This document shows positions 20,099-55,520 of a DNA stretch of 64,000 bases, piece after piece. The position numbers and the translations under genes are program-made. Position 1 is the stretch's first letter. Every line of letters starts with the position of its first letter. The notes beneath the pieces are model-generated. The model was not told the DNA's origin and ran no database searches. It saw nothing but the letters and a program-made list of their open reading frames with translations. Where the stretch lies: positions 4,744 through 68,743 of the IMG/VR virus record IMGVR_UViG_3300021431_000120, one strand, 5' to 3'. The stretch is from a virus. Its lineage: Duplodnaviria; Caudoviricetes.

Positions 20099-20124
20099 AC
20101 GGCAAAAATAAAAATTTTGCCGTA
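20098..20124 (-). promoter_or_regulatory. terL promoter (-7 box TATTTTTG) inside a 10-bp inverted repeat
   Basis: Plus strand TACGGCAAAA-ataaaat-TTTTGCCGTA, overlapping the TAnnTTTG box and the start codon. Confidence 0.55.
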
Positions 20125-20134
20125 CATTTCAAAA

Positions 20135-20893
20135 TTAGTCAGTGATTTCTACTTCATAACGCATCAACGCATCATATAATCGCTTGGTTATCTCGCCTCT
20201 GTCGTAGTATTCCTGGGCAACCTTCTTGATGTATTCTTCTTTTGCTTTCTTGTATGCAGCGAAGGCATCTTCTGGTGTATCAAACAGTCCGATGAAAGCC
20301 TCTCTCCCGTCGCGACGCAATCTCGCACGATATCTTCCTTTATAGGCTGTTACGCCAAGCGGGAATAGGCCCCTGTCAGCTTTTCGGTTCACGATAAGAG
20401 AATTTATAGATTTTGGCACATATACGCAGTATTGCGGGCAATAGACCCTGTTTCCCTTTTTGATAAGGTCTTTGTCAAGGCTCCATCCGCTAACTCCATT
20501 CTCGTCGTACCATTTCTTAAATCCTGGAAAATCTCGCCAATCATCGCAAACCGTACATCCAATATATGACGGGTACTTTTTCAATTTTTTCGTATCATAA
20601 CATCGGTGCATCATATTCTTCCATTCTTGATATGCTACGGTACCAAAAACCTTTTCGTATGAATTATTCCTACCAAAACCAGCAACTCGAAAAGGTCTAT
20701 TTTCGGCTGCGCATTTCGGGCATCCTTCACTGCACAGATGGTTGCTGGCATTTTGCGTAAAGGGGCCGTGCTTTTTACAAACGACTGTAACTGGAGACCG
20801 AAAACCGTTATATTCAGTAGAGGAGTAATCGTTCTTGTCGCCCCACTTCCTGACGGCTTTCGCTATAAATTCTTCCCTCGTTAACTTTTTCAT
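20135..20893 (-). CDS. Free-standing homing-endonuclease-like protein (DUF723-like Zn ribbon, HNH-like core, AP2 domain)
   Basis: N-terminal TREEFIAKA...YDYS...CKKHGPFTQ...GCPKC; middle WKNMMHRCY...LDKDL; C-terminal AP2-like LGVTAYKGRYRARL...IGLFDTPEDAFAAY. Confidence 0.75.
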   Translation of the reverse strand: MKKLTREEFIAKAVRKWGDKNDYSSTEYNGFRSPVTVVCKKHGPFTQNASNHLCSEGCPKCAAENRPFRVAGFGRNNSYEKVFGTVAYQEWKNMMHRCYDTKKLKKYPSYIGCTVCDDWRDFPGFKKWYDENGVSGWSLDKDLIKKGNRVYCPQYCVYVPKSINSLIVNRKADRGLFPLGVTAYKGRYRARLRRDGREAFIGLFDTPEDAFAAYKKAKEEYIKKVAQEYYDRGEITKRLYDALMRYEVEITD

Positions 20894-20905
20894 ATCAACA
20901 AAAAT

Positions 20906-20988
20906 CCCACAACTTTCGGCGGTGGGTCCAGCACGCGCCTACTCGTTGTGGGGCTTTAAGTTTCTATCTGTGGTAACTGGACCTTACC
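20906..20988 (-). ncRNA. Kissing-loop/loop-E structured leader, copy A
   Basis: Hairpin 1 GGTAA-GGTCCAG-TTACC. Hairpin 2 CCCACAAC-G-AGTA-GGCGCGTG-CTGGACC-CACCGCC-GAA-A-GTTGTGGG. Promoter TATCTTTG at 21002-20995. Confidence 0.75.
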
Positions 20989-21024
20989 GTACCGCAAAGA
21001 TAGCAAAAGATTTTTAACTTTCAA

Positions 21025-21120
21025 AAAAAAACCGAGCACATCGTCACGACGGGCTCGGCGAACGTGTATAGAAAAAATGGAAAAGAAAAAAGTAGTCCGC
21101 TCTCCTTAAACGGACTTTTT
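21025..21120 (-). terminator. Two tandem intrinsic terminator-like hairpins
   Basis: AGTCCG...CGGACT plus a T-tract, then CCGAGC...GCTCGG plus T8, downstream of the DUF3127-like gene. Confidence 0.6.
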
Positions 21121-21134
21121 GTTAAGTTCGAAGG

Positions 21135-21422
21135 TTATATCGGATCGACCTGCGCTTGGTCTATACTCCATGACCAGCAGTTGAGGTCGGTAAAATATTT
21201 CCCATTATATTCGCGGGTCTTTGCATCAAATTTAAAAGTCCCGGTCTGACCGACTCGCAATTTCGCAAAATTCTCCGCATCTTTCGAGTTCTGAAGGGCA
21301 ATTGATTTAGGGAACTGTCCCGATTCATATTCAACGACCACAGTCTGACGAGCCCAGGGACCCCTCTGCCCCATGCCTCTTTCAATTGGCGGCATCGCCG
21401 TTATTTTTCCATGAATTTCCAT
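21135..21422 (-). CDS. DUF3127-like OB-fold (SSB-like) protein
   Basis: MEIHGKITAMPP...GPWARQTVVVEYE...FPKSIAL...REYNGKYFTDLNCW is the pattern of the Bacteroidota DUF3127 family. Confidence 0.75.
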   Translation of the reverse strand: MEIHGKITAMPPIERGMGQRGPWARQTVVVEYESGQFPKSIALQNSKDAENFAKLRVGQTGTFKFDAKTREYNGKYFTDLNCWSWSIDQAQVDPI

Positions 21423-21432
21423 ATATTAATTT

Positions 21433-21981
21433 TTACTTTTCTTCTTCAATTTCCGTGCCATCCTCGACTTCTTCGCAATTTTCTTCGACAAATTTTCGGT
21501 AAGCACATTCATTGCATGTTACCGGCAGATACCGCCTCGGTTGCTCTTCCACTTGCTCATCCCCGTCGAGAAGGCCTACCTTATCCATAAGCTTTAGAAC
21601 TGTCTCGGGATCCTCGGCTTGTTCAATATTGTCTGCCAGGCTCATAGCAAACTCCATCGCTTTGGTCCTTGCCTTTGCCTTCCTTTCCTCTAAACTCCCA
21701 CTCTGAACTGGCTTAACTGGCTCTGGATGCAATACTTTGTCTATCGTGGCAGTGTAAGCGTCGATATATTCCTTTACTTCTTTCCTTGCATAGAATTGCT
21801 TAATAGCATCCTCCACCGCTGCCTTCGAACTGGATGCCCTCATGTCGGGTCTAGCGAAGGTGAAAAATGCGTCCCGCTTCGTACAACCAGACAAGACATA
21901 CCACGTTAAAGCCGCTTGTTCTGGCTGAGAAAGAGAAGACAAAAATCCTTCCGGACGGAGCGGTATTAATGATTTAGCCAT
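21433..21981 (-). CDS. Possible terminase small subunit
   Basis: 182 aa with an N-terminal HTH-like part and a helical oligomerisation-like part, near terL. Confidence 0.45.
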   Translation of the reverse strand: MAKSLIPLRPEGFLSSLSQPEQAALTWYVLSGCTKRDAFFTFARPDMRASSSKAAVEDAIKQFYARKEVKEYIDAYTATIDKVLHPEPVKPVQSGSLEERKAKARTKAMEFAMSLADNIEQAEDPETVLKLMDKVGLLDGDEQVEEQPRRYLPVTCNECAYRKFVEENCEEVEDGTEIEEEK

Positions 21982-21984
21982 ATC

Positions 21985-23022
21985 CTAAGCATAAAACGGG
22001 AATAACTTGACAGATAGATTGCGCACTGATTTGTCAAACACATCAAACTCAAGTTCCAAAAAGCCCGTGTGTGCCGCCAATTTTTTTCCTCTCATAAAAT
22101 TAGTCTGCATCTGCATACAAGGAACGGAAATCGCGTGAATGTTGCGTTCAAGAATATAGCAAAACTTATGAACATGCCCTGCAAGCAAAATGTTCGGCTT
22201 GTCTCCGCCGGTTATCGCTTCGCACAACTTCTGGAGCCGATAACTGACTGCATACGAATTTGAGCCGTCTCCGCCATGGAACAGTCGCACGATAGCCCCA
22301 TCCACGTCAATATCTGCCGAATCGTGCCCGATATAAGTTACATTGGGCAACTCGTCTGCTATCGTCTTAATAATGTTCGCTCCAGCATATTCCTGGTAAT
22401 AGAAATCATGATTGCCGCTGATGATAAAAACGGGGACGTCGTACTTTTTCAGCAACGCCGCAGCCTTCGACTTCTGTGCTTCATAACCGATATCTGACAG
22501 CTCGTAAATCTGCGTTCCTATCCTGCCTATTTTCATCCCTTCGACAAGGTCGCCACAATGAAGTACGGCCTCGACATCGTGAGTATTAACATATTCAGAC
22601 ACTATGTCATGCCATTCTTCCGGAGAATAGACGCTCCCGATGTGGGTGTCGCTGATAACAATGAATTTATGGTGAACCCCTGACAGTTTTATTTCAGGAA
22701 AGACGACTTTTCTGCGCTCAATACCCTCTCCCCGTGCTATCGCGTCAATCTCAGCATCGGAATATCGTCTTTTAAGTCTCGCAATAATGGGGTCTTGATA
22801 TTTTTGTACTGGGGCGGACTTCGGTTTGGGGATTGGCTTTATGTCCGGTTCCTCCTCGCCTTCCGGTCCCTCATATATCCTAAAGGAATGGCCCTTAATC
22901 AAACAATAACCAGAGTCTCTTAGCCTATTAAATTCCTTTCCCCCATACGTCAGCCCATTTGCCTTAGTCGCCTTCCAGAGAGTCTTGAATTTACGACCAT
23001 CTTCGTCCAATACGTATCTCAT
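21985..23022 (-). CDS. Calcineurin-like metallophosphoesterase
   Basis: Motifs ISDTHIG, HCGDLVEG, ISGNHD, RLFHG and LAGHVH. Confidence 0.88.
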   Translation of the reverse strand: MRYVLDEDGRKFKTLWKATKANGLTYGGKEFNRLRDSGYCLIKGHSFRIYEGPEGEEEPDIKPIPKPKSAPVQKYQDPIIARLKRRYSDAEIDAIARGEGIERRKVVFPEIKLSGVHHKFIVISDTHIGSVYSPEEWHDIVSEYVNTHDVEAVLHCGDLVEGMKIGRIGTQIYELSDIGYEAQKSKAAALLKKYDVPVFIISGNHDFYYQEYAGANIIKTIADELPNVTYIGHDSADIDVDGAIVRLFHGGDGSNSYAVSYRLQKLCEAITGGDKPNILLAGHVHKFCYILERNIHAISVPCMQMQTNFMRGKKLAAHTGFLELEFDVFDKSVRNLSVKLFPFYA

Positions 23023-23049
23023 TCTTAAGCGGTTTTGGAGTTAATGCCG

Positions 23050-23057
23050 CAAATATA
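23050..23057 (-). promoter_or_regulatory. Bacteroidota-type promoter -7 box
   Basis: TATATTTG with an upstream TTTG, ahead of the phosphoesterase gene. Confidence 0.6.
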
Positions 23058-23080
23058 GTGTTTTTCGCGAGAAAAGCAAA

Positions 23081-23482
23081 TTATAGTTTACTATTTAAAT
23101 AATTATTGATTATCTGTTTAAACTGTTCGAGGGATCGGCAGATGTAATAAGCATATCCGTTTTGCTCAAGCCTAGCCTGAAAAGCCTTTTGCTCTTGGCT
23201 CTGGACGCCCGTATCCGTTTTAAATTCTATCGCAAGGCCGTGCAATCCATGACGCGACATAAACAAGAAAGTATCTGGAGCACCAGCAACAAGACCAAGT
23301 GCCTTTCGCATAGCACCGTCCATCTTACTATCACGATTGCCTTCATTTGGGATATGTATAAAGTTCCCCCTCGTTTCGGGATATGTGTTCCAAAGCCATT
23401 CCACACATGATGCTTGTATCCTTGCCTCGGGCTGGGTGTGCTTACGCTTCTTCGGTTGTGGCGGGGTCTCAATGATTGCCAT
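23081..23482 (-). CDS. VRR-NUC domain nuclease
   Basis: EARIQASCVEW...HIPNEG...GLVAGAPD...IEFK...QSQEQKAF. Confidence 0.88.
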   Translation of the reverse strand: MAIIETPPQPKKRKHTQPEARIQASCVEWLWNTYPETRGNFIHIPNEGNRDSKMDGAMRKALGLVAGAPDTFLFMSRHGLHGLAIEFKTDTGVQSQEQKAFQARLEQNGYAYYICRSLEQFKQIINNYLNSKL

Positions 23483-23699
23483 CTCTCAGCTCCTTTGCTT
23501 TATTCTCATACCATGCGGCCTTCGCGCGATCCTGCTCGGCAGAGTTGCCTTCTTTCAGCCCAGCACGCCATTCGTACTTGAACTGGTTACACTCGCAGAA
23601 GTTGATGACAGCCTCTGTGCCAAATCGCTCTATCATAACATCAATGCACTCTCTGCCATTCTTCAAGTAGTGAGAGGGATGGTTGACTTGTTCACTCAT
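23469..23699 (-). CDS. DUF3310-like protein
   Basis: VNHPSHY...ECID...FCECNQFKYEWRAGLK. Likely start is ATG 23699 (MSEQ). Confidence 0.8.
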   Translation of the reverse strand: MSEQVNHPSHYLKNGRECIDVMIERFGTEAVINFCECNQFKYEWRAGLKEGNSAEQDRAKAAWYENKAKELRDGNH

Positions 23700-23701
23700 A
23701 T

Positions 23702-23845
23702 TTAAACGTAGTTCATTATATCCGGTTTTTCCCCTTTCCTGACGAGCCGTTCTATCTCGCGGCGGGTGCGGCGGTCGAAGGTGTACCAATAGTCTCCGAT
23801 GGTCGCGTCCTTGAACGGCTGTGCCTTGTATTCTTCGATGGTCAT
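23702..23845 (-). CDS. Small hypothetical protein (47 aa)
   Basis: Read by hand as MTIEEYKAQPFKDATIGDYWYTFDRR...; it fills the gap in a tightly packed operon. Confidence 0.55.
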   Translation of the reverse strand: MTIEEYKAQPFKDATIGDYWYTFDRRTRREIERLVRKGEKPDIMNYV

Positions 23846-23852
23846 AGTATCG

Positions 23853-24071
23853 TTACTTTTGTTTTTCTCTTATCCATACACCCATCAGCGGAGGAACATA
23901 TATTCCAGCCTCTCTTGCCTTTTGTGCAGCGGACTCAAACATCTCTTTTTGTTCACCGGGGACAAGAAGGGGATTCTCCCGATAAGACTTCGCTTCTTTG
24001 ACTACCGACTTCAAATCATCTACCGGGCTTCTTTCTTCCGTCTCATACCCTTCTTCAAACCAACGTGCCAT
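23853..24071 (-). CDS. Hypothetical protein
   Basis: 72-aa ORF in operon context. Confidence 0.55.
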   Translation of the reverse strand: MARWFEEGYETEERSPVDDLKSVVKEAKSYRENPLLVPGEQKEMFESAAQKAREAGIYVPPLMGVWIREKQK

Positions 24072-24072
24072 G

Positions 24073-24231
24073 TCATTTAAGAATTTTTGGCATGCTTACG
24101 GTTGAACCGCACTTCGGGCACAGGAAATGACGGTATCGTTCATTCTCGTCCTCGTATTTCATCTTTTTTCGACAAATAGGGCACGTCGCTCTCTTAATGC
24201 CGAGGCGGTACAATAAACTATCAATACTCAT
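24073..24231 (-). CDS. Small Zn-ribbon protein (52 aa)
   Basis: Read by hand: CPICRKK...CPKCG. Confidence 0.6.
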   Translation of the reverse strand: MSIDSLLYRLGIKRATCPICRKKMKYEDENERYRHFLCPKCGSTVSMPKILK

Positions 24232-24232
24232 A

Positions 24233-24451
24233 TCACTCAAATATTTTTCTATAATGCTCGCACAATGCCTCGCGGGTGGGGAAAATGCGATAAGGAAGGC
24301 GCATTACCACCCGCATATCTCCGTTCGGATAATGCCCATCAATCACAACGCCGAACACATCCTCCTGCGGCACATCGTCCAGAATAAACTCCATTATTCT
24401 TTCCGCCTGTGGTTCAAACCACCACACCTTGTCTCCTGGTTTCATAGTCAA
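24233..24451 (-). CDS. Hypothetical protein
   Basis: 72-aa ORF in operon context. Confidence 0.6.
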   Translation of the reverse strand: MTMKPGDKVWWFEPQAERIMEFILDDVPQEDVFGVVIDGHYPNGDMRVVMRLPYRIFPTREALCEHYRKIFE

Positions 24452-24774
24452 TGACGATATGATGCGCCGATCTCAAACTCATTTACTCTTGGAAAAGTTT
24501 CCAAAGGGGACTGTTTTACACCAACTATTTCCTGTTCTGTATCAGCATCCCAGACCTTACCATCATTAGTATGGTAATGGTCTTCATCATCAAGCTCATA
24601 ACAATCCGGGCAATAGTGCTTGTCCCCGAATTTTAGCCACTCGCTATCAAGAGCGGACTGCTCGATAAGTTCTCCGTTCTCATCGTCAATGTATGAGCAA
24701 AAGTCATCTCCGTCGTGGAAGTGCGTCCCGCACCCATCACAGACAATAATCATTGATTTCACTTCTTGTTTCAT
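24448..24774 (-). CDS. Acidic Zn-finger-like hypothetical protein
   Basis: CDGCG...HYCPDC. Confidence 0.65.
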   Translation of the reverse strand: MKQEVKSMIIVCDGCGTHFHDGDDFCSYIDDENGELIEQSALDSEWLKFGDKHYCPDCYELDDEDHYHTNDGKVWDADTEQEIVGVKQSPLETFPRVNEFEIGASYRH

Positions 24775-24826
24775 TTCTCGTATTCGCTTTTCTTGGGACT
24801 GTTCCGTCTAATCTCGATGTCCATAA

Positions 24827-25108
24827 CTACTCTAACCAGTACTTTGTTACTTCAAACCCAGCGTCGGTCTCTTTTACTTCAAAATCGTACTCGTTCAGCC
24901 GGTTGTACTCTTCCTTAAATGTCTCCTTAAAGCCACGTATAGACTGGAAGGCTAAGGAAACTTCTTCGACTTCCACGTCAGAACATAACTTCTTTGGTCC
25001 ATAACCGATAACCGAAGAATCATTAAGAATCAGATTATCTTCGACCAAAATCTCAATGGTCTTCGCAAAGGCTAACAAAGCCGCTTTAGAATTACCTAAC
25101 TCCATCAC
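24827..25108 (-). CDS. Hypothetical protein
   Basis: 93-aa ORF in operon context. Confidence 0.55.
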   Translation of the reverse strand: MMELGNSKAALLAFAKTIEILVEDNLILNDSSVIGYGPKKLCSDVEVEEVSLAFQSIRGFKETFKEEYNRLNEYDFEVKETDAGFEVTKYWLE

Positions 25109-25320
25109 TAATCCTCCTCAATTTCTACAGTTATCTTCACTCGTTTTCCACGGAATTCGTCGAGGTCAAAGGCTTTCGGTCTGTTCTGATTGAATGGGAA
25201 ATAAAAACTTTGTGGCACGCCATTCAGACTGTCAGGATACGCATCAACTTGGAATAGAAATCCATCTTCTCTGTTGTATTGAAAACCAACCATATGTCCG
25301 ATTTGTTCTGAAATAATCAT
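25108..25320 (-). CDS. Hypothetical protein
   Basis: 70-aa ORF in operon context. Confidence 0.55.
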   Translation of the reverse strand: MIISEQIGHMVGFQYNREDGFLFQVDAYPDSLNGVPQSFYFPFNQNRPKAFDLDEFRGKRVKITVEIEED

Positions 25321-25357
25321 ATTCTTACTTTTCTGCTTCTCCCTTCAAATCCCGTGC

Positions 25358-25963
25358 CTAAAACAGTTTCGGCGAGGCGGGCTTCACAAAACTGAACCTC
25401 CCGTGGTTTCTTTTATTCTGTACTTCGTCGCCCGGTTTCGGAGGATAACCATCTGGACGCCAAAAGAACCCGCCGTGCGTCCTGTTCTCGCCTCGATAAC
25501 AAGCTGATATATGAGCTCGGCATAGTCCAGTTTCTCTCGCCGCCTCTGATATACTCCGAAACACTTTGATGAGATTACAGTTTATGTCGTACTGTAAAAC
25601 ACTCTTTCTTTTACCTCTTACCATCTTCTCCCTTGCGGAGCCATAGTTTAAATTGTATTTATTTGTGCACCACTCCAAGTTATCCGCGTTGTTATTAGTT
25701 TTATTCTCGTCTTTATGGTTTACAATCGGATAACCATTCGGATTCGGCACAAAAGCAATGGCGACTAAACGATGGACAAAAAATTGCTTTGTCTTTCCGT
25801 TTTTAGATAGACCAACGACCTTATATCCATAACAAGAGGTGGATTGTCGTATAATTTTGACTATGCCCAAACATTTATAGTTAAGGGCTTTTACATTGCC
25901 ATAATTGCTGATTTCATATAGGCCCTCATACCCCAGAACGGTCTTCCAAACTTCTATCTTCAT
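25358..25963 (-). CDS. NUMOD4-HNH-NUMOD1 homing endonuclease
   Basis: EVWKTVLGYEGLYEISNYG; VHRLVAIAF...VNHKDENKTNNNADNLEWCT; SISEAARETG. Confidence 0.9.
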   Translation of the reverse strand: MKIEVWKTVLGYEGLYEISNYGNVKALNYKCLGIVKIIRQSTSCYGYKVVGLSKNGKTKQFFVHRLVAIAFVPNPNGYPIVNHKDENKTNNNADNLEWCTNKYNLNYGSAREKMVRGKRKSVLQYDINCNLIKVFRSISEAARETGLCRAHISACYRGENRTHGGFFWRPDGYPPKPGDEVQNKRNHGRFSFVKPASPKLF

Positions 25964-25976
25964 CTTAAAAACAACA

Positions 25977-26059
25977 ATCCCCTGTGTTCAAATAGCGGTG
26001 GAAGCACTATCCTACTGGCAGGGGATGCGATATTTCTACTTGCTATCTTCCACATAGCA
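25977..26059 (-). ncRNA. Kissing-loop/loop-E structured leader, copy B
   Basis: Hairpin 1 TGCTAT-GTGGAAG-ATAGCA. Hairpin 2 ATCCCCTG-CC-AGTA-GGATAGTG-CTTCCAC-CGCTATTT-GAA-CA-CAGGGGAT. Promoter TATCTTTG at 26075-26068. Confidence 0.75.
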
Positions 26060-26081
26060 TTGTTATGCAAAGATAGTAATT

Positions 26082-27584
26082 TTATTTAAACAACGAAGGA
26101 TTCTCGTCTTTTTTCTTAACCTTTACCTTGCTCAAGATATTAGTCCGAAAAGCCCACCAATACTTCGGACTGATACTCTCCCCGTGTTTGGTCCGAAGAA
26201 CTTCTATCGCTCGCATAAAAGCTCCCTTCTGGTTGTCGGGATTCTTTATGCAAACTTGAATCAATATCCAGTTCGTCTTTTTCCCTTCAAGTTTCTTTCT
26301 TGCGACATACCCCTCAATCGTTTCTTCATCGTTTTTTGCGACTATTTCTTGTAAATCTGATTGATAGATTTCTTGCTGTGTCGGAAAGTGGTACTGGCAA
26401 TACGGGCAATCTTGATATTGAACCGGAATCATCTTCTGGCACTGCGGACAGATTTTCATAGGCGGCACTCCGCCGCCAGCGCCCTCCTTATGCCAAAGTC
26501 CCCAAACGCGAGAATCTTCATAACGACCGAGGCGAGAGTAATTGAGGCCGAAATCCAAACAGATAAACTCGCCATTCTTCCCGTCAGCGGGCCTGCTGCA
26601 ACGGCCTAACACTTGATACCACTTAACTATCGAGGTCGTAGCGAACAAGACAAGCACGGTCTTTATATCAGGTATATCCAGGCCAGCAGTTCCTATTCCA
26701 AGCAGCACAAGAACTTGAAACTCTCCGCGCTTAAACTGAGCCATAATCTCTTTTCTTTCCCCACTAAAGTCCTCGTCCTCATCAAAGTTGGCTGATAGCA
26801 GGTATTTCGCTTTAATACCCGCAGCGCAGAATTGCTCCGTGATTCCAATAACTTGCTCGGAACTACATCCGAAACATACGGCCTTAGCGCCGGGACAAAT
26901 ACGCTGATAATTCTCCACTGCCCCGATGTACCTTGCGCGAGACTTGAACTTCTGAGCCATCTGACCAAGCGAGTAATCTCCACGACCGTAGTCCCACTCG
27001 ACATCATCCATCGACGGAGCATCCAAGGAATACAACTTGCATCGGCACAAAAAACCTTGGTCTATTAGGTCTTGGACTGATGGGCCAACTACCATCGCCT
27101 CATACATAAGCGCGAGTTGCTTCATTCGCCCATACCGAGCAGGGGTGGCACTAAGACCTACCACATACACCCTCGGATTAACATACTCAAAGATGACGTC
27201 GAATTCACTTCTATGACATTCATCAAGTATCATGAACTTAAACTCGTCGAACCAAGCCCGCCAAGAATCCTTCTTGAGCCTCTGCCGTAGTGTCTGCACC
27301 ATCATACAGCAGCAGTCATTCTCCGGCATCTTCCGTGTCTTAGCATACACTTCGGCAACATCAACGCCCCACTTACGAGCGTGATTGGCGTCTTGTCTTA
27401 AGATTTCCTCGCTATGGGCAAGGATTAAAACACGATTATGTTTAGCCGTTGACATTGATGCCATTGAACCGATAAGGACCCCCTTCCCGCTTCCGGTCGG
27501 GGACTGTACAATAATATGCTTGTGCTTCGCGAGAGCCTGACGAGACTCGGTAATAAGCGTTTGTTGGTATTCGCGTAACTGCAT
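26082..27584 (-). CDS. SF2 DEAD/DEAH-box helicase with C-terminal Zn finger
   Basis: LREYQ, SPTGSGK, LDECH, LSATP, GRCSR, and CPQC...CPYC. Confidence 0.92.
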   Translation of the reverse strand: MQLREYQQTLITESRQALAKHKHIIVQSPTGSGKGVLIGSMASMSTAKHNRVLILAHSEEILRQDANHARKWGVDVAEVYAKTRKMPENDCCCMMVQTLRQRLKKDSWRAWFDEFKFMILDECHRSEFDVIFEYVNPRVYVVGLSATPARYGRMKQLALMYEAMVVGPSVQDLIDQGFLCRCKLYSLDAPSMDDVEWDYGRGDYSLGQMAQKFKSRARYIGAVENYQRICPGAKAVCFGCSSEQVIGITEQFCAAGIKAKYLLSANFDEDEDFSGERKEIMAQFKRGEFQVLVLLGIGTAGLDIPDIKTVLVLFATTSIVKWYQVLGRCSRPADGKNGEFICLDFGLNYSRLGRYEDSRVWGLWHKEGAGGGVPPMKICPQCQKMIPVQYQDCPYCQYHFPTQQEIYQSDLQEIVAKNDEETIEGYVARKKLEGKKTNWILIQVCIKNPDNQKGAFMRAIEVLRTKHGESISPKYWWAFRTNILSKVKVKKKDENPSLFK

Positions 27585-27585
27585 A

Positions 27586-28362
27586 TCAGAACAGCCTCCC
27601 CGCCTTATCTTCCTCGGCCTTCTTTATGCGTTTGGAAGCGATGTTAAAGTATTCTTCATTCAGTTCTATGCCGATGAAATTCCTTCCCATGTTCACGCAA
27701 GCAACACCGGTCGAGCCAGAGCCCATAGTGTTGTCAAGAACAGTCTCGCCTTCGTTGGTGTATGTCTTGATAAGGTATTCAAGAAGCGCGACGGGCTTCT
27801 GAGTTGGATGCGATTGTCCCTCGCTGCAATGTACGGCTTTGATTTTGATTATAGACCTCGGGTGTTTCTTGTCCTCGTATGTCGGATTTATACGCTTTAC
27901 ATTCCCGTAGCACTGATTCTTCTCGTTATGATTACCGTGACCCTGCGGATGGTTTCTTTCCCTCCCATTCAAATCCTCCATCTGCGGGTTATAGGTCGGA
28001 AGACTTTTATAGAAAACGCATATATCCTCGTGATACCGAAGTGGCATCCTATTCGCGTTCAGAAAACCAGTCGCACGGCACTTGTCCCATACCAGATTAT
28101 ACCTCCACATCTTAGGATTCGACATCATCAGTCGCGCCGTAAACATTCCTTGAGCGAACAAGACTATCGCGCCGTTGTCCTTGATTATCCTGCTGTATTG
28201 TTCCCAAAGAGGCTCGAAAGGTATTATCCTATCCCATTGTGCTGACTTGTTTCCTTTATTAAGCACCTCGTATGGCAAATCGCAGAGTATCATATCGACA
28301 CTCTTGTCTGCAATCTTCTGCATCTCTACGAGGCAGTCTCCGTGGTATAGTTGAATTGCCAT
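27586..28362 (-). CDS. Site-specific DNA methyltransferase (N6/N4 family)
   Basis: LYHGDCL, CDLPY, HPTQKPVALLEYLI, and VLDNTMGSGSTG. Confidence 0.92.
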   Translation of the reverse strand: MAIQLYHGDCLVEMQKIADKSVDMILCDLPYEVLNKGNKSAQWDRIIPFEPLWEQYSRIIKDNGAIVLFAQGMFTARLMMSNPKMWRYNLVWDKCRATGFLNANRMPLRYHEDICVFYKSLPTYNPQMEDLNGRERNHPQGHGNHNEKNQCYGNVKRINPTYEDKKHPRSIIKIKAVHCSEGQSHPTQKPVALLEYLIKTYTNEGETVLDNTMGSGSTGVACVNMGRNFIGIELNEEYFNIASKRIKKAEEDKAGRLF

Positions 28363-28363
28363 A

Positions 28364-28789
28364 TCAGAATACTACTACCATTGACGGGAACGGTGCTCCC
28401 TGCTTTGAGTCGTTGAAATGAAGCCTACCACGGATGAATCGGATTTCCTTGGCCTTGTGATAGATGTAATCGTGGAAGTAAGCCGTATCTGTCCTTGCCG
28501 GGATGAGCATGACCACGACCTCGCAGTTCTTGCTTTCCTCGTAGCATTTTTTGACCCATTTGCCGATTTCTCTGCCGTAAGGAGGATTGCAAAACACTCT
28601 CGTTCCTTCCCTCCCCCATTTTTGCGTAAGACCGTCATCTTCAAGAGTATAGTGTCTCTCGCACTTAGCGTTCTCGTGCGTACAGCATGGATCAAGGTTG
28701 AAATGGAACTCCGCATCCAGCTTCTTATAGAAGTCGGTCGGAGTCGCCCACTCATTACTGTTCGATGAAAATAGTCCTTTGTTAATCAT
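28364..28789 (-). CDS. Phage N6-adenine methyltransferase (Dam-like)
   Basis: EWATP...FNLDPCC...VFCNPPYG...LIPARTDT...IRFIRGRLHF. Likely start is ATG 28789 (MINKGLFSS); the track's longer start runs into the tRNA-like element. Confidence 0.88.
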   Translation of the reverse strand: MINKGLFSSNSNEWATPTDFYKKLDAEFHFNLDPCCTHENAKCERHYTLEDDGLTQKWGREGTRVFCNPPYGREIGKWVKKCYEESKNCEVVVMLIPARTDTAYFHDYIYHKAKEIRFIRGRLHFNDSKQGAPFPSMVVVF

Positions 28790-28794
28790 ATCTG

Positions 28795-28868
28795 CGGATG
28801 GAGAAGGACTCGAACCTTCGACTTGCGGTCTCAACTCTTACCGCGCTCTACCACTGAGCTACCCATCC
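28795..28868 (-). tRNA. Atypical tRNA-like element with an enlarged, non-canonical anticodon loop (no anticodon assignable)
   Basis: GGATGGG-TA-GCTC-AGTGGTA-GAGC-GCGGT-AAGAGTTGAG-ACCGC-AAGTC-GAAGG-TTCGAGT-CCTTC-TCCATCC-G. The acceptor, D and T arms are intact; there is no encoded CCA. Confidence 0.6.
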
Positions 28869-28871
28869 AAA

Positions 28872-29023
28872 AATCGGTGCGGAGTTCCTTGGCCTCACGC
28901 TTGGCCAGTTTGCGCTTCTCGAAGCAGGCGGCTCCAAGAGGAATCCGTATGCCACATTCAACTCAATTAACCTCGACCCGCACCGATGCGCCGCCGTTAG
29001 CGCACTCATGGTCTCACGCGGCG
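28872..29023 (-). ncRNA. Putative structured RNA upstream of the tRNA-like element
   Basis: Stems CCGCCG/CGGCGG, ATCGGTGCGG/CCGCACCGAT, TTCC..TTGG/CCAAGGAA and GGCC/GGCC lie in a non-coding gap. Confidence 0.4.
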
Positions 29024-29025
29024 GA

Positions 29026-29400
29026 TTACTCTACTATAATATAAGTTTTTTCCTCGCCTTCACGTCCCGAGCGGAGCCTGTCCGTGCTCATTTCTGCTCT
29101 TCGGAATCCAGAAATAAAATCATGAACAGCGAATAATGTGTCGTCTCCTAGACCCGCCTTTTCCATAGCCTTCTTCAGATTCCCCCATGTCGGTTCAATC
29201 CTACGGTCCTCAAAAAGCGTCTTCGGCTCCTTCCAAATGTCGTAAGTGCCCTCTGAGAAAGAACGCAGAGGCACATTACTTTCCCCCCAAGGGAACACAT
29301 CAATACTACCCGGTCGAATAGCATTAACCGCAAACCTCTTACCGGCGTCCTTGCCTTCCTTTGGCGTCACGCCATACTTAAATAAATCTTCTGTATTCAT
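29026..29400 (-). CDS. Hypothetical protein
   Basis: 124-aa ORF in operon context. Confidence 0.65.
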   Translation of the reverse strand: MNTEDLFKYGVTPKEGKDAGKRFAVNAIRPGSIDVFPWGESNVPLRSFSEGTYDIWKEPKTLFEDRRIEPTWGNLKKAMEKAGLGDDTLFAVHDFISGFRRAEMSTDRLRSGREGEEKTYIIVE

Positions 29401-29675
29401 AATTCTACCATTTTAACTAAATGCCAATAATTGTCAACCCGGTCAAGTCGGCTAATCCATAACGAGCGTATGGTCTTAAATGGGAATCCGAATTTCTCTT
29501 GGCATAGTTCATCCAATTCATTATCAAATATCCCTCCCGTGTTGTTCCAGACAGCATGTACCATAATTTGGCACAATCTACCATCTTCGGTCTGATACTC
29601 ACCCGCGATTGCCGGACCGAATGCATTTGCGGGGGCCAATACCCATTCGGCAAATTTACACTTTATCTTTTGCAT
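29397..29675 (-). CDS. Hypothetical protein
   Basis: 92-aa ORF overlapping its neighbours. Confidence 0.6.
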   Translation of the reverse strand: MQKIKCKFAEWVLAPANAFGPAIAGEYQTEDGRLCQIMVHAVWNNTGGIFDNELDELCQEKFGFPFKTIRSLWISRLDRVDNYWHLVKMVEL

Positions 29676-30039
29676 TGTATATAACTAAGATGCATTTCTC
29701 TTTATCCAAGATATCCTTGCCGTGACCTTCTAGCCTTGCATAACGCAGCCATTGTTGATAAGCAATGTCCCATGTGATACCATACTTCATTTTGCATAGG
29801 AAATTACACATCTTATCACATGGGATAAGCATCACACTCTCGATCCTTACATCCGGTCCGTTAAAAAAACGAAGAATATCTCCGGCAGAGGCATCCAATA
29901 GCACGCGGGTCTTCTCATAATACATCCCATAAGGGAGTAAGACGTAACCCAACCATGGCTCCCCAGACGCCTCCTGGTATGCCTTATATTCTTTTCCTTT
30001 TACCATAACGCGAAGAAAGGTCATAAAGGGCCGAAACAA
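29656..30039 (-). CDS. Hypothetical protein
   Basis: 127-aa ORF; the true start may be slightly downstream. Confidence 0.6.
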   Translation of the reverse strand: MFRPFMTFLRVMVKGKEYKAYQEASGEPWLGYVLLPYGMYYEKTRVLLDASAGDILRFFNGPDVRIESVMLIPCDKMCNFLCKMKYGITWDIAYQQWLRYARLEGHGKDILDKEKCILVIYNAKDKV

Positions 30040-30559
30040 AACTGTCCATCATGGTCGAGCTAACGGTCTGCTTATCTTCTGGAATCTGGCTGTATTGGAA
30101 GTAGAAATCGTGCAAATAAGAGAAGTAATCCGGACGGATAAATTTCTTTATCGGGCCCTTCGGTGACCAATGTAACTTGGGAGTCGATTTGAATATCTCG
30201 ATGTTCGCTGGATTCGGGTAATCTAACCATTCCTCGATGCCTAATAGATAAAACTGCATACAATAGGGAAGCAAACACCAAGATACGTCTTTCTTTCGCA
30301 AAGCGAAGAAATACTTCTCCGCCAAGGTCATTAACTTCGCATTCCTCGCCCACCAATAGAGATTTGAACAGAAAAATTGCCAACTGGAATCCTCTTTGCC
30401 AAGGATCCCCAGAGACCACTCGTTCTTCCTCGCCTGCAAAAACTCTCGTGTGTCAAGGTCGTCTCCGTAGTCCATGGCATCAATAACGCCTCGCTTAAAG
30501 CAGACGTCAAAGAACCGCAAAATCTGCGGGGCTGTAGTCCTATTGAGTGCTGATATCAT
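29984..30559 (-). CDS. Hypothetical protein
   Basis: 191-aa aromatic-rich ORF in operon context. Confidence 0.65.
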   Translation of the reverse strand: MISALNRTTAPQILRFFDVCFKRGVIDAMDYGDDLDTREFLQARKNEWSLGILGKEDSSWQFFCSNLYWWARNAKLMTLAEKYFFALRKKDVSWCLLPYCMQFYLLGIEEWLDYPNPANIEIFKSTPKLHWSPKGPIKKFIRPDYFSYLHDFYFQYSQIPEDKQTVSSTMMDSFVSALYDLSSRYGKRKRI

Positions 30560-30747
30560 TTTACATTAAAACCCAATTGAGTAAGATACATGAGAATGTA
30601 AAAATACATCCCAATACTACATGCCGGTGTCCGCTCCACAACAACATAACCTTCATCTTCATGCAAAGACGCGAGAGCGATACCCCTCTCGTCCTTCACC
30701 CAGCAGTCATTGATATCCAGTATCTCCAAATTACTTATCTCTTGCAT
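30556..30747 (-). CDS. Hypothetical protein
   Basis: 63-aa ORF filling a gap between overlapping neighbours. Confidence 0.5.
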   Translation of the reverse strand: MQEISNLEILDINDCWVKDERGIALASLHEDEGYVVVERTPACSIGMYFYILMYLTQLGFNVK

Positions 30748-31466
30748 AACTTCCCGTTATCATCTACATACCACTCGCCCTTCTTGAACTCGGAAGGATT
30801 AATCGGAGCATCAATCATCTTGTCGATAAGAATAATACGGTCCTTCATCTCGGCAAGACTGGCAGTGTAGTCTTTGCGCTTAAAAACAAAAACCATGCCA
30901 CGCCAGGGAGCAAGAGGGTCCGCAGGCTCAAAGTCGTTAAACTCGTCGCAATAAATGTGCTTAACTATCCAAACTTCCTCGGCCTTCGGCTTTGATAGGA
31001 ATAATCCCAAAATCTGGTCTCCATGTTCATCCCACACCTTCGCTTTCTTTTCCTCTAATGGGGTGTATTCGTCTGCAAAGAACTCGATGTTGCTATTACT
31101 GACAACAGTCTTGCAGTCAATAATTATTCTCTCGTCTTCTGTGAAAGCATCCGGCGAAGCGCCAAACTTAGCCCAATCAACAGTCCAAAAAGGTATTCCA
31201 CTCTCTACCTCCTGAGAATAGATTATCGGGACATTAGGATATTGGTTACGGAACCACTCGATAACATAAGGCTCGTTTTGTGTGCCTATTTCCATCGTCC
31301 TGGAAGATACCTGCAATGGAAATCCATATCTCCTTTCAAATCTTTTTGAGCGGATTGCGGCAACGGTGCCATCTATAATCCTGCCAGACTTCGATGTTAT
31401 ATCCGACAGCATAGACGCTGTTAGATACCCACACCGTTCAAGTCTCCATTTGTGCTCTTTGTCCAT
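30735..31466 (-). CDS. YqaJ/lambda-exonuclease-like recombination nuclease
   Basis: WRLERCGYLTAS...MEIGTQNEP...GASPDAF...DCK. Confidence 0.8.
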   Translation of the reverse strand: MDKEHKWRLERCGYLTASMLSDITSKSGRIIDGTVAAIRSKRFERRYGFPLQVSSRTMEIGTQNEPYVIEWFRNQYPNVPIIYSQEVESGIPFWTVDWAKFGASPDAFTEDERIIIDCKTVVSNSNIEFFADEYTPLEEKKAKVWDEHGDQILGLFLSKPKAEEVWIVKHIYCDEFNDFEPADPLAPWRGMVFVFKRKDYTASLAEMKDRIILIDKMIDAPINPSEFKKGEWYVDDNGKLCKR

Positions 31467-31468
31467 AA

Positions 31469-32008
31469 CTATTCAGGCAAGTCCTCCAACTGGTCGATGA
31501 TAGCCTGCTTAACCGCATCAGAGGAGAAGTCGTACTTCTCGGCAATCTGAGCAATGCCGTATCCGTTCTTCTTCGCCCAATCGACAATGGTCTGAATCTG
31601 GCTCTCCTGGATGGCCTTCTTTGCGGGAGCCTCGGGCTGTTTGGCCGGTATAAGGCTGACCCTAAGTCCCCAGCATTCTCCGCCCTCTTGTGGATCTCTG
31701 GTTTTTTCCTTCGTGAGACGGATTGCCACATTGTGTAGCCTTGCGAGGTATCCCTCGCATTCAGGGAAGAGTTTGGCGAGCCTGCGGCGATTTGTACTAT
31801 TGATCACCCACGGAAGGCTCGTGTATGGGTTTTTAGCAAAATGGGCAATCCAGACACCGGCTTGCTTACGACCGTTAATCTGTTCGGACTCCTTGAACTC
31901 GATGCTCTCGATAACGATGTACTCGATGTCCTTACCGGACGGAAGTACCTCAATTCCGGCATGTGTAATATTACCGCCAGTGCGGAAGTGAATGTCGTTT
32001 TGATTCAT
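31469..32008 (-). CDS. Hypothetical protein, possible recombination/ssDNA-binding partner of the exonuclease
   Basis: Likely start is ATG 32008 (MNQNDIHF). It is adjacent to the YqaJ-like gene; the function is inferred from synteny only. Confidence 0.5.
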   Translation of the reverse strand: MNQNDIHFRTGGNITHAGIEVLPSGKDIEYIVIESIEFKESEQINGRKQAGVWIAHFAKNPYTSLPWVINSTNRRRLAKLFPECEGYLARLHNVAIRLTKEKTRDPQEGGECWGLRVSLIPAKQPEAPAKKAIQESQIQTIVDWAKKNGYGIAQIAEKYDFSSDAVKQAIIDQLEDLPE

Positions 32009-32009
32009 A

Positions 32010-32600
32010 TTATTGTTTTTTGTTGTCAACTTCAAAATTTGTGCCAGATGCATATTCCCATCGGAATCCGCCAGCTGATTTAGAGCGCCCTATGCAATTA
32101 TTAGATATTGCTCCCTGATAACACCCGACGGCCCTTGCTGCTGACGCGGTGCTTTCATGCATGCATATAAGGTTATAATTCATATCGTATTGTAGAACGG
32201 CTTTGAATCCTTTCTTATTCTTCATTCTGGTCGATGCTGCACGACACTGACGATTATTGTAGCTTTGGTTATAAGCGACAGTACACCACTCAAGATTCTC
32301 AACCCGATTATCTGTTTTAATTTCGTTTTTGTGATTGATAACTGGGTAATTGTTTGGATTCGGAATAAAGGCCATAGCTACAAGCCTATGTATGCGCCAA
32401 TATCTACGAGTCCCATTTTTGCAAAGCATTACAATATAATATCCATCCACATTTACCATGGGTTTGAGGACTCTTCCTTTCCTTGTCTGAATACCGCCGC
32501 GCACTGGAATTTTCATATCATAAGAACGGACTCTCCCAATACTGCTTACGGCATACAACCCTTCAAATCCAGGAATGTCCTTCCAAGTTCCTTCTTCCAT
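32010..32600 (-). CDS. NUMOD4-HNH-NUMOD1 homing endonuclease
   Basis: WKDIPGFEGLYAVSSIG; IHRLVAMAF...INHKNEIKTDNRVENLEWCT. Likely start is ATG 32600; the track start at 32645 lies inside the RNA leader. Confidence 0.9.
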   Translation of the reverse strand: MEEGTWKDIPGFEGLYAVSSIGRVRSYDMKIPVRGGIQTRKGRVLKPMVNVDGYYIVMLCKNGTRRYWRIHRLVAMAFIPNPNNYPVINHKNEIKTDNRVENLEWCTVAYNQSYNNRQCRAASTRMKNKKGFKAVLQYDMNYNLICMHESTASAARAVGCYQGAISNNCIGRSKSAGGFRWEYASGTNFEVDNKKQ

Positions 32601-32614
32601 TTTTGTAAAAGTAG

Positions 32615-32696
32615 TGCCCGAACTTTCAGAGAATGGGTCGAGCATCCGCCTACTTATCCGGGCATCCTATATATCTTCCGCTATCTCGACCATAGC
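32615..32696 (-). ncRNA. Kissing-loop/loop-E structured leader, copy C
   Basis: Hairpin 1 GCTAT-GGTCGAG-ATAGC. Hairpin 2 TGCCCGGA-TA-AGTA-GGCGGATG-CTCGACC-CATTCTCT-GAA-AG-TTCGGGCA. Promoter TATCTTTG at 32709-32702. Confidence 0.75.
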
Positions 32697-32735
32697 AAGA
32701 GCAAAGATAGCAAATTATTCGGAATTATGCAAGTC

Positions 32736-33221
32736 TCATGCCTCCTTCTCTGGCAATTCCCGTGCCACCGACTTCTTGAAACGTCCGTTCGCATCTCTCT
32801 CAAGCTTCCTTCTCTCTTTGGGGCTCTTCTCTACGTAATCCTGGACCTTCTTCACTTCCTCGACAGCAACCTTCTCTTCGGTTTCGTCCTCGACAACTTC
32901 GCCTTTGGCTTTCTTCTCCAGCCTCTTGCTGTACTTCTGGACGGCTCTCTGGATATCATCCACGAATCCTTGATCGGTAGTGAGCATCTTGCCGATTTCA
33001 TACATGGTGAGAGCAAATCCATGCATATTCTCGTCGTCATTCCCCGCCAAGAGATACCCATAGGGGTGCTCGTCCGCCACAAAACGGCATTTAAAGTTAC
33101 CACTCACTGTCGAGATGTCCAGCCAAAAACGCCTGAACTTCCAACGGAAACCTCCGACTTCACCCTTGCGAATAACTGGGTTTTTTACCGTGAACCACCA
33201 CCATTTGAGGAACTTCTTCAT
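32736..33221 (-). CDS. Hypothetical protein
   Basis: 161-aa ORF in operon context. Confidence 0.7.
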   Translation of the reverse strand: MKKFLKWWWFTVKNPVIRKGEVGGFRWKFRRFWLDISTVSGNFKCRFVADEHPYGYLLAGNDDENMHGFALTMYEIGKMLTTDQGFVDDIQRAVQKYSKRLEKKAKGEVVEDETEEKVAVEEVKKVQDYVEKSPKERRKLERDANGRFKKSVARELPEKEA

Positions 33222-33601
33222 AACATTTTTATTTTTTGTTGAAAACTATCCCAAATCTTCGTTTCGCGAGGGTACATCCTCGGATATTTCAGCATATTTC
33301 CTATCGCAGCCAACCCGTGCAAGACTGTCGTGTGATGCAACCCCAAAGCGCGACCGATAGACCCTAGTGAGTACCCTTCGAGCCGCATCTGATACGCAAT
33401 CATATACCTTCCCCACACAAAAATAGGCTTTTTTGTCCTAATAAGCACATTTTTCCCTAAAATTTCCGCGAAAATATCCACATAATACTCCGCTACCGAG
33501 CTGGCATCGGGCTTGAATTCAATCGGATACTTCTCGCATCCTCCCCGGAACGAGCAGAACTCGCAGTGACGATCCGCTTCTTTTACTGACCAGATACACA
33601 T
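33218..33601 (-). CDS. DnaA domain IV-like helix-turn-helix protein
   Basis: GRYMIAYQMR...SLGSIGRALGLHHTTVLHG resembles the DnaA C-terminal signature (SL..IG..FG.RDHTTV.HA). Confidence 0.6.
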   Translation of the reverse strand: MCIWSVKEADRHCEFCSFRGGCEKYPIEFKPDASSVAEYYVDIFAEILGKNVLIRTKKPIFVWGRYMIAYQMRLEGYSLGSIGRALGLHHTTVLHGLAAIGNMLKYPRMYPRETKIWDSFQQKIKML

Positions 33602-55484: not shown

Positions 55485-55520
55485 TTATTTTTCCGTTGTT
55501 CAATTATAAACCGTTGTTCT

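Follow-up and report, generated by a model that had tools for sequence, protein, structure and literature searches.

Three copies of a compact leader RNA, each set between a promoter box and the ATG of a nuclease gene, have been identified in the window (the whole 64,000-nt stretch analysed, part of IMG/VR virus record IMGVR_UViG_3300021431_000120). An earlier note on this DNA had placed three minus-strand copies here, and matches to a covariance model (R1) agree with it to within a base or so at either end. The complete 68.7-kb record contains exactly these three, and a pattern combining promoter and core finds three matches in the window, against none in 100 shuffles. The parts of each copy are as follows.

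20995-21002, minus strand: copy 1, predicted -7 promoter box TATCTTTG, in a full -33/-7 pattern match
21022-21025, minus strand: copy 1, -33 TTTG of the same full -33/-7 pattern match
20906-20988, minus strand: copy 1, leader RNA (P1, linker, P2/putative S-turn/P3), model R1, 69.3 bits, E 2e-13
20977-20983, minus strand: copy 1, P1 loop GGUCCAG, exact complement of 20925-20931
20925-20931, minus strand: copy 1, P3 loop CUGGACC, complement of the P1 loop
20940-20943, minus strand: copy 1, AGUA strand of the internal loop, invariant in all copies
20915-20917, minus strand: copy 1, GAA strand of the internal loop, invariant in all copies
20894-20905, minus strand: copy 1, U-rich spacer of 12 nt, directly 3' of P2
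20135-20893, minus strand: copy 1, nuclease gene, 252 aa, DUF723 (Pfam), PHROG 953/374 "HNH endonuclease"
26068-26075, minus strand: copy 2, predicted -7 promoter box TATCTTTG, starting 7 nt past the helicase stop
25978-26058, minus strand: copy 2, leader RNA, model R1, 76.3 bits, E 5e-15
26047-26053, minus strand: copy 2, P1 loop GUGGAAG, exact complement of 25998-26004
25998-26004, minus strand: copy 2, P3 loop CUUCCAC, complement of the P1 loop
26013-26016, minus strand: copy 2, AGUA strand of the internal loop
25987-25989, minus strand: copy 2, GAA strand of the internal loop
25964-25977, minus strand: copy 2, U-rich spacer of 14 nt
25358-25963, minus strand: copy 2, NUMOD4-HNH_3-NUMOD1 homing endonuclease gene, 201 aa
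32702-32709, minus strand: copy 3, predicted -7 promoter box TATCTTTG
32616-32696, minus strand: copy 3, leader RNA, model R1, 79.7 bits, E 8e-16
32685-32691, minus strand: copy 3, P1 loop GGUCGAG, exact complement of 32636-32642
32636-32642, minus strand: copy 3, P3 loop CUCGACC, complement of the P1 loop
32651-32654, minus strand: copy 3, AGUA strand of the internal loop
32625-32627, minus strand: copy 3, GAA strand of the internal loop
32601-32615, minus strand: copy 3, spacer of 15 nt, its U-run weaker than those of the other two copies (tail score about 1.9)
32010-32600, minus strand: copy 3, NUMOD4-HNH_3 homing endonuclease gene, 196 aa

All three copies share one order of parts: a TAnnTTTG box, the hairpin P1, a purine-rich linker, P2, AGUA, P3, GAA, the closing strand of P2, the spacer and the ATG. 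P1 has 5 bp, P2 and P3 have 7-8 bp each, the loops of P1 and P3 are 7 nt each, and in these copies the linker measures 16-19 nt and the spacer 12-15 nt. This is the order originally described, with small corrections to the pairing: a bulged C in P3 of copy 1, one C-A mismatch in P2 of copy 2 and one C-U mismatch in P3 of copy 3. The two loops of each copy had been read as exact reverse complements, and they are (GGUCCAG/CUGGACC, GUGGAAG/CUUCCAC and GGUCGAG/CUCGACC).

The search for homologues in phage databases that had been suggested found 39 copies of the leader, about 81 nt long, in IMG/VR (33 of them distinct in the main set), spread over 20-odd related phage records; the group that carries them consists of uncultured Bacteroidota-type phages of 67-85 kb. 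Parabacteroides phage PF672P2, the nearest cultured relative, has no covariance-model match; no leader match was obtained by megablast or blastn in 50,697 GenBank phage records, and a pattern scan of 185,579 bacterial and archaeal species genomes gave two matches, both due to chance. With Rfam 15 (4227 models) a tRNA was the sole match at gathering thresholds, and even at E<=10 nothing in region 20000-33500 overlapped the three copies, in keeping with the first impression that no Rfam family corresponds. A full-text literature search found no description of the leader, though the unnamed automatic candidates of an IMG/VR-based survey (PMC10690425) could include the motif; its core strings are absent from those supplementary alignments of PMC8040213 that were examined. 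The leader is an undescribed RNA family with no Rfam counterpart.

The natural covariation that the three copies had suggested, loop-loop helix included, is borne out in the homologues, where all four helices (P1, P2, P3 and loop-loop) covary. Covarying pairs make up 5 of 5 in P1, 6 of 8 in P2 and 6 of 8 in P3; in the loop-loop helix pairing is complete (100%), and double changes occur at 6 of the 7 positions. Over the alignment 95.8% of the paired cells hold a pair, as compared to 70.7% in shuffles and about 41% with the partners slid, and RNAalifold independently returns the same nested fold. Thirteen different loop codes occur, the two 7-nt loops being exact complements in every copy and the central four loop positions varying freely. 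Pair 50/73 is always G-U, G-C or A-U, and is G-U in 21 of 29 cases; given such frequent G-U pairs, only a sense-strand RNA fits. AGUA and GAA (alignment columns 46-49 and 74-76), with a canonical pair next to them on the P3 side, are the only invariant unpaired bases, an AGAAA in the linker being loosely conserved. With the alignment extended to the promoter, spacer and first codons, examination of all column pairs yielded no alternative conserved helix; it recovered only P1, the kissing helix and P2, plus an invariant AGUA/UGCU match that does not covary, P3 falling under the threshold because of gaps. Pairing of the linker with the U-rich spacer was considered and set aside as generic A/U complementarity with no cognate preference (cognate duplexes -3.04, non-cognate -3.19 kcal/mol, p 0.73). 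No conserved ligand pocket is evident from the alignment, since the loops form seven fully Watson-Crick pairs with 13 interchangeable codes, and as no antiterminator helix covaries, nothing shows a switch.

The proposed link to free-standing nuclease genes holds throughout the family: every copy precedes a homing-endonuclease gene or its remnant. Tabulation of the downstream ORFs first gave 28 nucleases out of 29, belonging to at least four unrelated families, and the copies found later likewise precede nucleases; the exceptions are one deleted and one truncated gene, leaving 2 of 39 copies with no intact gene behind them. By Pfam and PHROG the genes are I-HmuI-like, HNH, GIY-YIG and other homing nucleases. 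The endonuclease gene of copy 2 has inserted into the 3' end of the helicase gene and has taken over the former helicase stop codon. At this site a relative (G012) lacks promoter, leader and gene together, an empty site which shows that all three insert as one; in two others (G001 and G006) the common unit starts exactly at the promoter box, and the same insertion site in relatives holds different leaders and nucleases. Nuclease domains and presence/absence polymorphism at a conserved site, as expected of homing-endonuclease cassettes, are thus both found, and the leader belongs to a mobile cassette of free-standing homing-endonuclease genes, inserting inside operons and travelling as a unit. 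Because near-identical leaders (L005 and L028) stand ahead of unrelated nucleases, binding of a leader by its cognate nuclease appears unlikely. A DNA-level operator for the nuclease was rejected on the same observation, and also because the G-U pairs fit one RNA strand only.

The placement of the leader relative to its signals is equally regular. In every copy a box of the form TAnnTTT(G/A) lies 4-13 nt upstream of P1, which would put P1 at or near the 5' end of the transcript, and the ATG follows 11-17 nt downstream of P2. TAnnTTTG is the Bacteroidetes-type promoter box, and nine full -33/-7 promoters are found in the window where 1.35 are expected. The box lies upstream of P1 and outside the fold, no promoter is embedded in the structure, and the region of the start codon and ribosome-binding site is not paired in a hairpin, nor was any conserved pairing of spacer or start found. 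An AUG or GUG at the junction of P1 and its loop in some copies was considered as the start of a conserved upstream ORF, but this was rejected because other lineages lack it or have it in a different frame. In copy 2 the frame from this junction would be 32 codons long and would end at the nuclease ATG.

The long hairpin resembles an intrinsic terminator: a U-run comes immediately after its GC-rich base (P2 begins mostly with C-G pairs), and the ATG comes next. T makes up 56% of the leader spacer, as compared to 30% of the 16 nt upstream of 61 other ORFs, and the U-tail score is 3.39 for the leaders, 1.43 for those ORFs and 1.09 for random positions. Tail quality varies among the copies, with scores of 1.9-4.9; that of copy 3 has only four U, five bases past the stem. 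A terminator scan did not call the leader hairpins because it models simple stems only, not long ones with internal loops.

The reading that we favor, at about even odds, is that the leader is a cassette-borne cis element which attenuates nuclease expression and is built like a guanidine-IV riboswitch, but with no ligand. Host RNA polymerase would start at the -33 TTTG and -7 TAnnTTTG, a few bases before P1, and the first 81 nt or so fold into the short hairpin P1 and the long hairpin formed by P2, the AGUA/GAA internal loop and P3. The 7-nt loops of P1 and P3 join in a full 7-bp helix, and the long hairpin would act as an intrinsic terminator, premature termination setting the dose of nuclease; the leader may also keep the ribosome off. 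With both the kissing helix and P2 formed, the 15-19 nt of the linker must span about 88 A, while the tether is slack before P2 closes, and the kissing helix and short, taut linker would set how easily the terminator base P2 closes. This would be the logic of guanidine-IV, where a kissing loop competes in the same way with the terminator stem and linker length sets the competition between kissing helix and full stem (PMC11611296), though hard-wired and with no ligand pocket. Both RNAs consist of two hairpins, connected by a linker, with kissing loops, and in both a U-run follows the base of the 3' hairpin to give a terminator, a putative one in the leader. In guanidine-IV (the mepA motif), however, the loops are conserved, form the ligand site and pair weakly without guanidine, and the genes downstream are transporters; in the leader the loops form seven Watson-Crick pairs in 13 codes, conserved guanidine-site nucleotides are not found, no Rfam model matches, and all downstream genes are nucleases or remnants of them rather than guanidine exporter or detoxification genes. 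Of the earlier suggestion of an attenuator or riboswitch-like regulator, the attenuator part thus fits the terminator-like U-run after P2, while ligand sensing is not supported, the loops being hypervariable, AGUA and GAA the only invariant unpaired bases and no alternative helix conserved.

Some features sit less easily with attenuation: the constant spacing from the ATG is compatible with a translational role as well, a plain terminator does not explain the invariant AGUA/GAA, and transcripts reading through from phage genes upstream would also be subject to a polar effect of a terminator placed behind a strong promoter. Motifs of the AGUA/GAA kind are often docking sites for protein or RNA, and it is conceivable, if unlikely, that the folded leader works instead on translation, hindering or recruiting ribosomes at the start codon 11-17 nt away. 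It would lie where the Shine-Dalgarno helix sits on the 30S platform, in hosts that do without Shine-Dalgarno pairing; the S-turn could contact a ribosomal protein or S1, and the U-run could be a landing pad for S1. The tight spacing of P2 and ATG in all copies suits such a role, as does the control of T-even homing endonucleases at translation (PMC2988022). Yet no leader pairing with spacer or start codon covaries, cognate duplexes are no better than others, and the U-run is not a general initiation signal, since other genes of the same phage lack U-rich upstream regions. A role in RNA stability or processing seems rather improbable: P1 and the rod-like stack could cap the 5' end against 5'-end-dependent decay, or a T7-like, RNase III-type site could separate the nuclease message from upstream phage transcripts. 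P1 would be suitably placed near the 5' end, the cassette does insert inside operons, and T7 RNase III sites consist of two stems around an internal loop, which P2 and P3 resemble with their 8-bp stems; but a stabilizer would need no invariant S-turn, 7-bp kissing helix, U-run or fixed distance to the ATG, and no known processing motif was matched.

Other readings turn on the loops. ColE1 RNA I and RNA II have 7-nt loops, and pT181 and pIP501 use attenuation by antisense-RNA kissing, the outcome in pT181-type systems being a terminator just before the controlled gene. The leader is like these in its fully complementary 7-nt loops, whose sequence is the specificity code, but the plasmid systems use separate antisense transcripts in trans whereas both loops here are on one sense transcript. 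In phi29-family pRNA, as in the leader, one RNA carries two complementary loops that covary between relatives; there they pair between molecules, in a ring on the packaging motor and not in an mRNA leader, and the loops of the leader may pair within one molecule or between two. We regard as improbable the view that the loops are an address and not a mere brace, serving in a head-to-tail dimer or in a short terminated RNA that acts in trans on nascent copies; a related version would be a ligand-free mechanical switch, with the kissing helix and taut linker set against closure of the terminator base. Quite improbable also is a small RNA with a private address, in which a terminated leader of about 95 nt would accumulate and its loops pair between molecules, either as a phi29 pRNA-like dimer or as free leaders on nascent cognate leaders, and each cassette would own an orthogonal feedback channel. 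The intramolecular fold would need a taut linker and a head-to-tail dimer would not; loop cores in moderately diverged pairs change about as fast as the unpaired linker (0.23 and 0.16), despite the double changes required; and co-resident copies share no code (0 of 25 pairs, 2.7 expected, P about 0.05), in a test that is weak and confounded by site-specific lineages and patchy recombination. Some co-resident codes are only one base apart, however, the loops in cis are always close and should pair first, and with only 2 of 39 copies lacking an intact gene the leader is not a free-standing RNA gene. A small-molecule riboswitch or self-cleaving ribozyme is very improbable. Small ribozymes are common in phages, and the 5' hairpin, kissing loop and terminator-like hairpin do resemble guanidine-IV, but among the Rfam riboswitch and ribozyme models none gives a match, even at E<=10, the would-be pocket loops are hypervariable, invariance is confined to AGUA/GAA with the loosely conserved AGAAA, and the genes regulated are selfish nucleases with no metabolic theme.

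The cis-attenuation reading has a precedent in the T-even phages, which hold back homing endonucleases with terminators, RNA processing and hairpins, known examples being the hairpins of I-TevI/II/III, segB and Aeh1 mobE and the terminators of T4 mobE and segF (PMC2988022). As proposed for the leader, a selfish nuclease gene there starts with an RNA structure or terminator that holds its expression low or times it, and the cassette must fit the transcription program of the phage. The T-even elements, however, are simple lineage-specific hairpins over the Shine-Dalgarno site with a late promoter inside, or terminators within the coding region, whereas the leader has its promoter upstream of the fold, an unpaired start codon, a covarying kissing helix and an invariant internal loop, and one RNA family serves at least four nuclease families. 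The internal loop, with AGUA opposite GAA and a Watson-Crick or G-U closing pair on the P3 side, carries the sequence signature of the loop E/sarcin-ricin (bulged-G, S-turn) motif, a likeness at the level of signature. Like the HEARO/omega RNA of IscB, the leader is a structured RNA adjoining an HNH-domain gene, but it has no Rfam match, its proteins are I-HmuI-like, GIY-YIG and other homing nucleases rather than IscB, and it has no guide-like variable segment except the two loops, which pair with each other.

To our knowledge homing endonucleases are among the commonest selfish genes of phages, and their control is known almost only from the T-even coliphages. Here HNH, GIY-YIG and other nuclease families of Bacteroidota-type phages share a single RNA family, which shows strong covariation and moves with the cassette and is a practical marker for nuclease cassettes in viromes. 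The leader appears to be a compact natural case of an intramolecular kissing helix that spans a full 7 bp and has interchangeable codes, beside an invariant, putative S-turn, and is a candidate ligand-free relative of the kissing-loop riboswitches. In Bacteroides engineering it could serve as a portable part for dosing expression. Should the codes work in trans, mobile genes would have private regulatory channels of a new kind, and if the loops are indeed read as addresses, each selfish nuclease gene would have its own orthogonal feedback, with the logic of plasmid copy control built into a sense leader.

An RNA leader repeated three times ahead of nuclease genes, as proposed in the earlier note, is seen on the minus strand at all three sites:

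20906-20988, minus strand: leader copy 1, ahead of the nuclease gene at 20135-20893
25978-26058, minus strand: leader copy 2, ahead of the nuclease gene at 25358-25963
32616-32696, minus strand: leader copy 3, ahead of the nuclease gene at 32010-32600

Elements of the three window copies, in minus-strand reading
Shared order: TATCTTTG box; P1; linker; P2; AGUA; P3; GAA; P2 closing strand; spacer; ATG
P1 (5' hairpin): 5 bp, 7-nt loop
Linker: 16-19 nt, purine-rich
P2: 8-position stem
P3: 8-position stem with a 7-nt loop, between AGUA and GAA
Spacer: 12-15 nt, U-rich, between the P2 closing strand and the ATG
Gene downstream of copy 1: DUF723 / PHROG 953-374 'HNH endonuclease' type, 252 aa
Genes downstream of copies 2 and 3: NUMOD4-HNH_3, I-HmuI-like, 201 and 196 aa

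P2, the loop-E-like AGUA/GAA internal loop (the putative S-turn) and P3 form one long hairpin, and the ATG follows 11-17 nt after the leader in every copy. In each of the three copies the P1 loop is the exact reverse complement of the P3 loop, while compensating changes distinguish the stems, so that the natural covariation claimed earlier holds within the window itself. The promoter-plus-core pattern has three matches here versus none in 100 shuffles, and exactly three leader copies are present in the entire 68.7-kb virus record (rated 95% complete). When single copies are folded by minimum free energy, both P1 and the long hairpin come out; the z-scores are -2.0, -3.3 and -0.8. Copy 2 also has a 32-codon frame (25964-26056, minus strand) that starts with an AUG at the P1/loop junction and whose UGA overlaps the nuclease ATG; this frame is not conserved in other leader lineages.

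A TAnnTTT(G/A) box lies 4-13 nt ahead of P1 in every copy, usually with TTTG or a near match about 20 nt further upstream; together we take these to be the -33/-7 promoter type of Bacteroidota, full matches to which number nine in the window against 1.35 expected. The host is likely a member of the Bacteroidota, since the helicase neighbouring copy 2 has its closest counterparts in Parabacteroides phages (43% amino acid identity) and Flavobacterium phages (about 30%). The phage gene downstream of the copy-1 nuclease gene has a promoter to itself: another full -33/-7 match (20103-20133, minus strand) directly follows the nuclease stop, an arrangement similar to that of T4 mobE/nrdB (PMC2988022).

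An exact pattern scan of IMG/VR gave 36 loci, 23 of them true relatives. The covariance model R1, built from 20 trimmed copies, has 35 hits in those loci, with 1-4 copies per record in 22 related virus records (67-85 kb where complete); a core pattern without the promoter, together with a protein-led search, yielded six further copies. Among the 33 distinct sequences of the main set there are 13 different loop codes, a code being the matched 7-nt loop pair of one leader. The loops are exact complements in every copy, and even their usually conserved end positions co-vary in two. For the pair count, the loop-loop helix was entered in the model alignment as a pseudoknot: 95.8% of the cells hold a pair, against 70.7% when shuffled and about 41% with partners slid. 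The covariation check on homologues that had been called for thus finds all four helices covarying, with 5/5 pairs in P1, 6/8 in each of P2 and P3, and a loop-loop helix that is 100% paired with double changes at 6/7 positions. RNAalifold recovers the identical nested fold unaided, and AGUA and GAA are invariant across copies. G-U pairs are frequent in the helices, which places the structure in the sense-strand RNA rather than in the DNA or the antisense strand. AGUA (columns 46-49 of alignment A6) is also complementary to UGCU at the top of P3 (columns 56-59; for example, window 32651-32654 with 32641-32644); both are invariant, and while the RNA is being transcribed they could pair briefly as a 4-bp hairpin, though neither side varies.

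Of 29 downstream ORFs in the first tabulation, 28 confirm the tie to nuclease genes (19 NUMOD4-HNH, seven of the PHROG 374/953 type, one GIY-YIG and one endonuclease-VII-like), and the copies found later likewise precede nucleases. The two exceptions are L015:3733-3850, where the nuclease gene is cleanly deleted and the leader stands 30 nt ahead of the small phage gene whose window counterpart comes after the nuclease, and L034:7797-8040, where the leader is fused to a 5'-truncated HNH remnant, the C-terminal DNA-binding tail. Five different HNH proteins stand behind one leader lineage. It seems that a leader can stay in place while the ORF behind it is exchanged, because the leaders at L005:3413-4118 and L028:2874-3507, one base apart, precede unrelated nucleases (NUMOD4-HNH and endonuclease-VII-like, respectively). 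Two further HNH_3-like ORFs of the window phage genome lack the leader:

55415-56060, plus strand: fourth NUMOD4-HNH gene (55521-56060; true start likely the ATG at 55554) with its upstream region
37779-38240, minus strand: fifth HNH_3-like ORF, 153 aa, in a GC-rich stretch

The fourth gene again has a promoter-hairpin-U-run layout, with a TAccTTTG box at 55415-55422, a long hairpin and a U-run after the hairpin base; this hairpin folds no better than shuffles. The fifth ORF, with neither promoter box nor leader upstream, may encode a nuclease that has decayed or is expressed in another way. Elsewhere in the window (28794-28868, minus strand) lies a tRNA-like gene (Rfam tRNA, 47.9 bits) whose anticodon region carries 19 extra nt; ARAGORN calls it 'tRNA-???' with a four-base anticodon agtt, and it may not decode normally.

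Comparison of insertion sites indicates that the leader belongs to a mobile cassette. In the related genome G012 (locus L078), promoter, leader and nuclease are all absent and an uninterrupted helicase gene runs straight into a conserved stretch. The window, at copy 2, carries inside the helicase 3' end an insertion of recoded helicase end, promoter, leader and nuclease, seen at 25340-25377 and 26082-26115 on the minus strand; the helicase has a recoded C-terminus and a new stop, and the nuclease ORF extends into what was the helicase end, stopping at the old helicase TAG. Other relatives have different leader lineages and different nucleases at the same site. The unit common to genomes G001 and G006 (84% identity) extends from exactly the promoter box to 29 nt past the nuclease stop.

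T makes up 56% of the spacer after P2, compared with 30% of the 16-nt stretches ahead of 61 other ORFs of this phage; the spacer scores 3.39 as a terminator tail, whereas those ORFs score 1.43 and random positions 1.09. Intrinsic terminators are recognised by just such a layout, a GC-rich stem base with a U-run behind it, and the long hairpin is therefore a plausible attenuator just ahead of the start codon. To this extent the attenuator idea of the earlier note stands; its riboswitch-like side, taken as ligand sensing, is not supported. Among all column pairs of the extended alignment there is no second conserved fold, the scan returning the known helices and the AGUA/UGCU match without covariation, and linker-spacer pairing has no cognate preference; this speaks for neither a classical two-state switch nor a ligand pocket. 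A riboswitch or ribozyme likewise finds no support, given variable loops with 13 codes and no Rfam match.

By simple A-form arithmetic, forming the kissing helix and P2 together would stretch the 15-19 nt linker over about 88 Å. This is 4.4-5.5 Å per linker bond, much of the way to full extension; as long as P2 is open, the tether would be slack. As the linker would be taut only with both formed, closure of P2, the putative terminator base, and the kissing helix would load each other and so compete through the linker; we read the leader as a hard-wired dosing device for nuclease expression. Both ends of the transcript and the direction in which the leader would shift expression are inferred. 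In the guanidine-IV riboswitch a kissing loop is similarly reported to compete with closure of the terminator stem (PMC11611296), but the kissing helix here is a full Watson-Crick 7-mer that needs no ligand.

The constant spacing to the ATG and the invariance of the S-turn would also suit a translational role, and the 5'-terminal position one in stability or processing. An intermolecular 'address' role of the loops is hinted at by the taut linker, by co-resident copies sharing a code in 0 of 25 pairs where 2.7 are expected (P about 0.05), and by loop cores whose rate of change in moderately diverged pairs is about that of the unpaired linker, though lineage structure and patchy leader recombination confound both the code-sharing and the loop-rate tests.

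As the earlier note had supposed, the leader matches no named family in a covariance-model scan against Rfam. It is absent from 50,697 GenBank phage records and was not found by pattern scan in 185,579 bacterial and archaeal species genomes, where two hits were due to chance; no published description was found, though the RNA may figure without a name among the automatic candidates in supplements of virome surveys. T-even phages hold back their homing endonucleases by terminators, RNA processing and hairpins (PMC2988022), which provides a biological rationale for dosing by the leader. We judge this to be a structured leader that would control a selfish gene, unusual in its kissing architecture and interchangeable codes.
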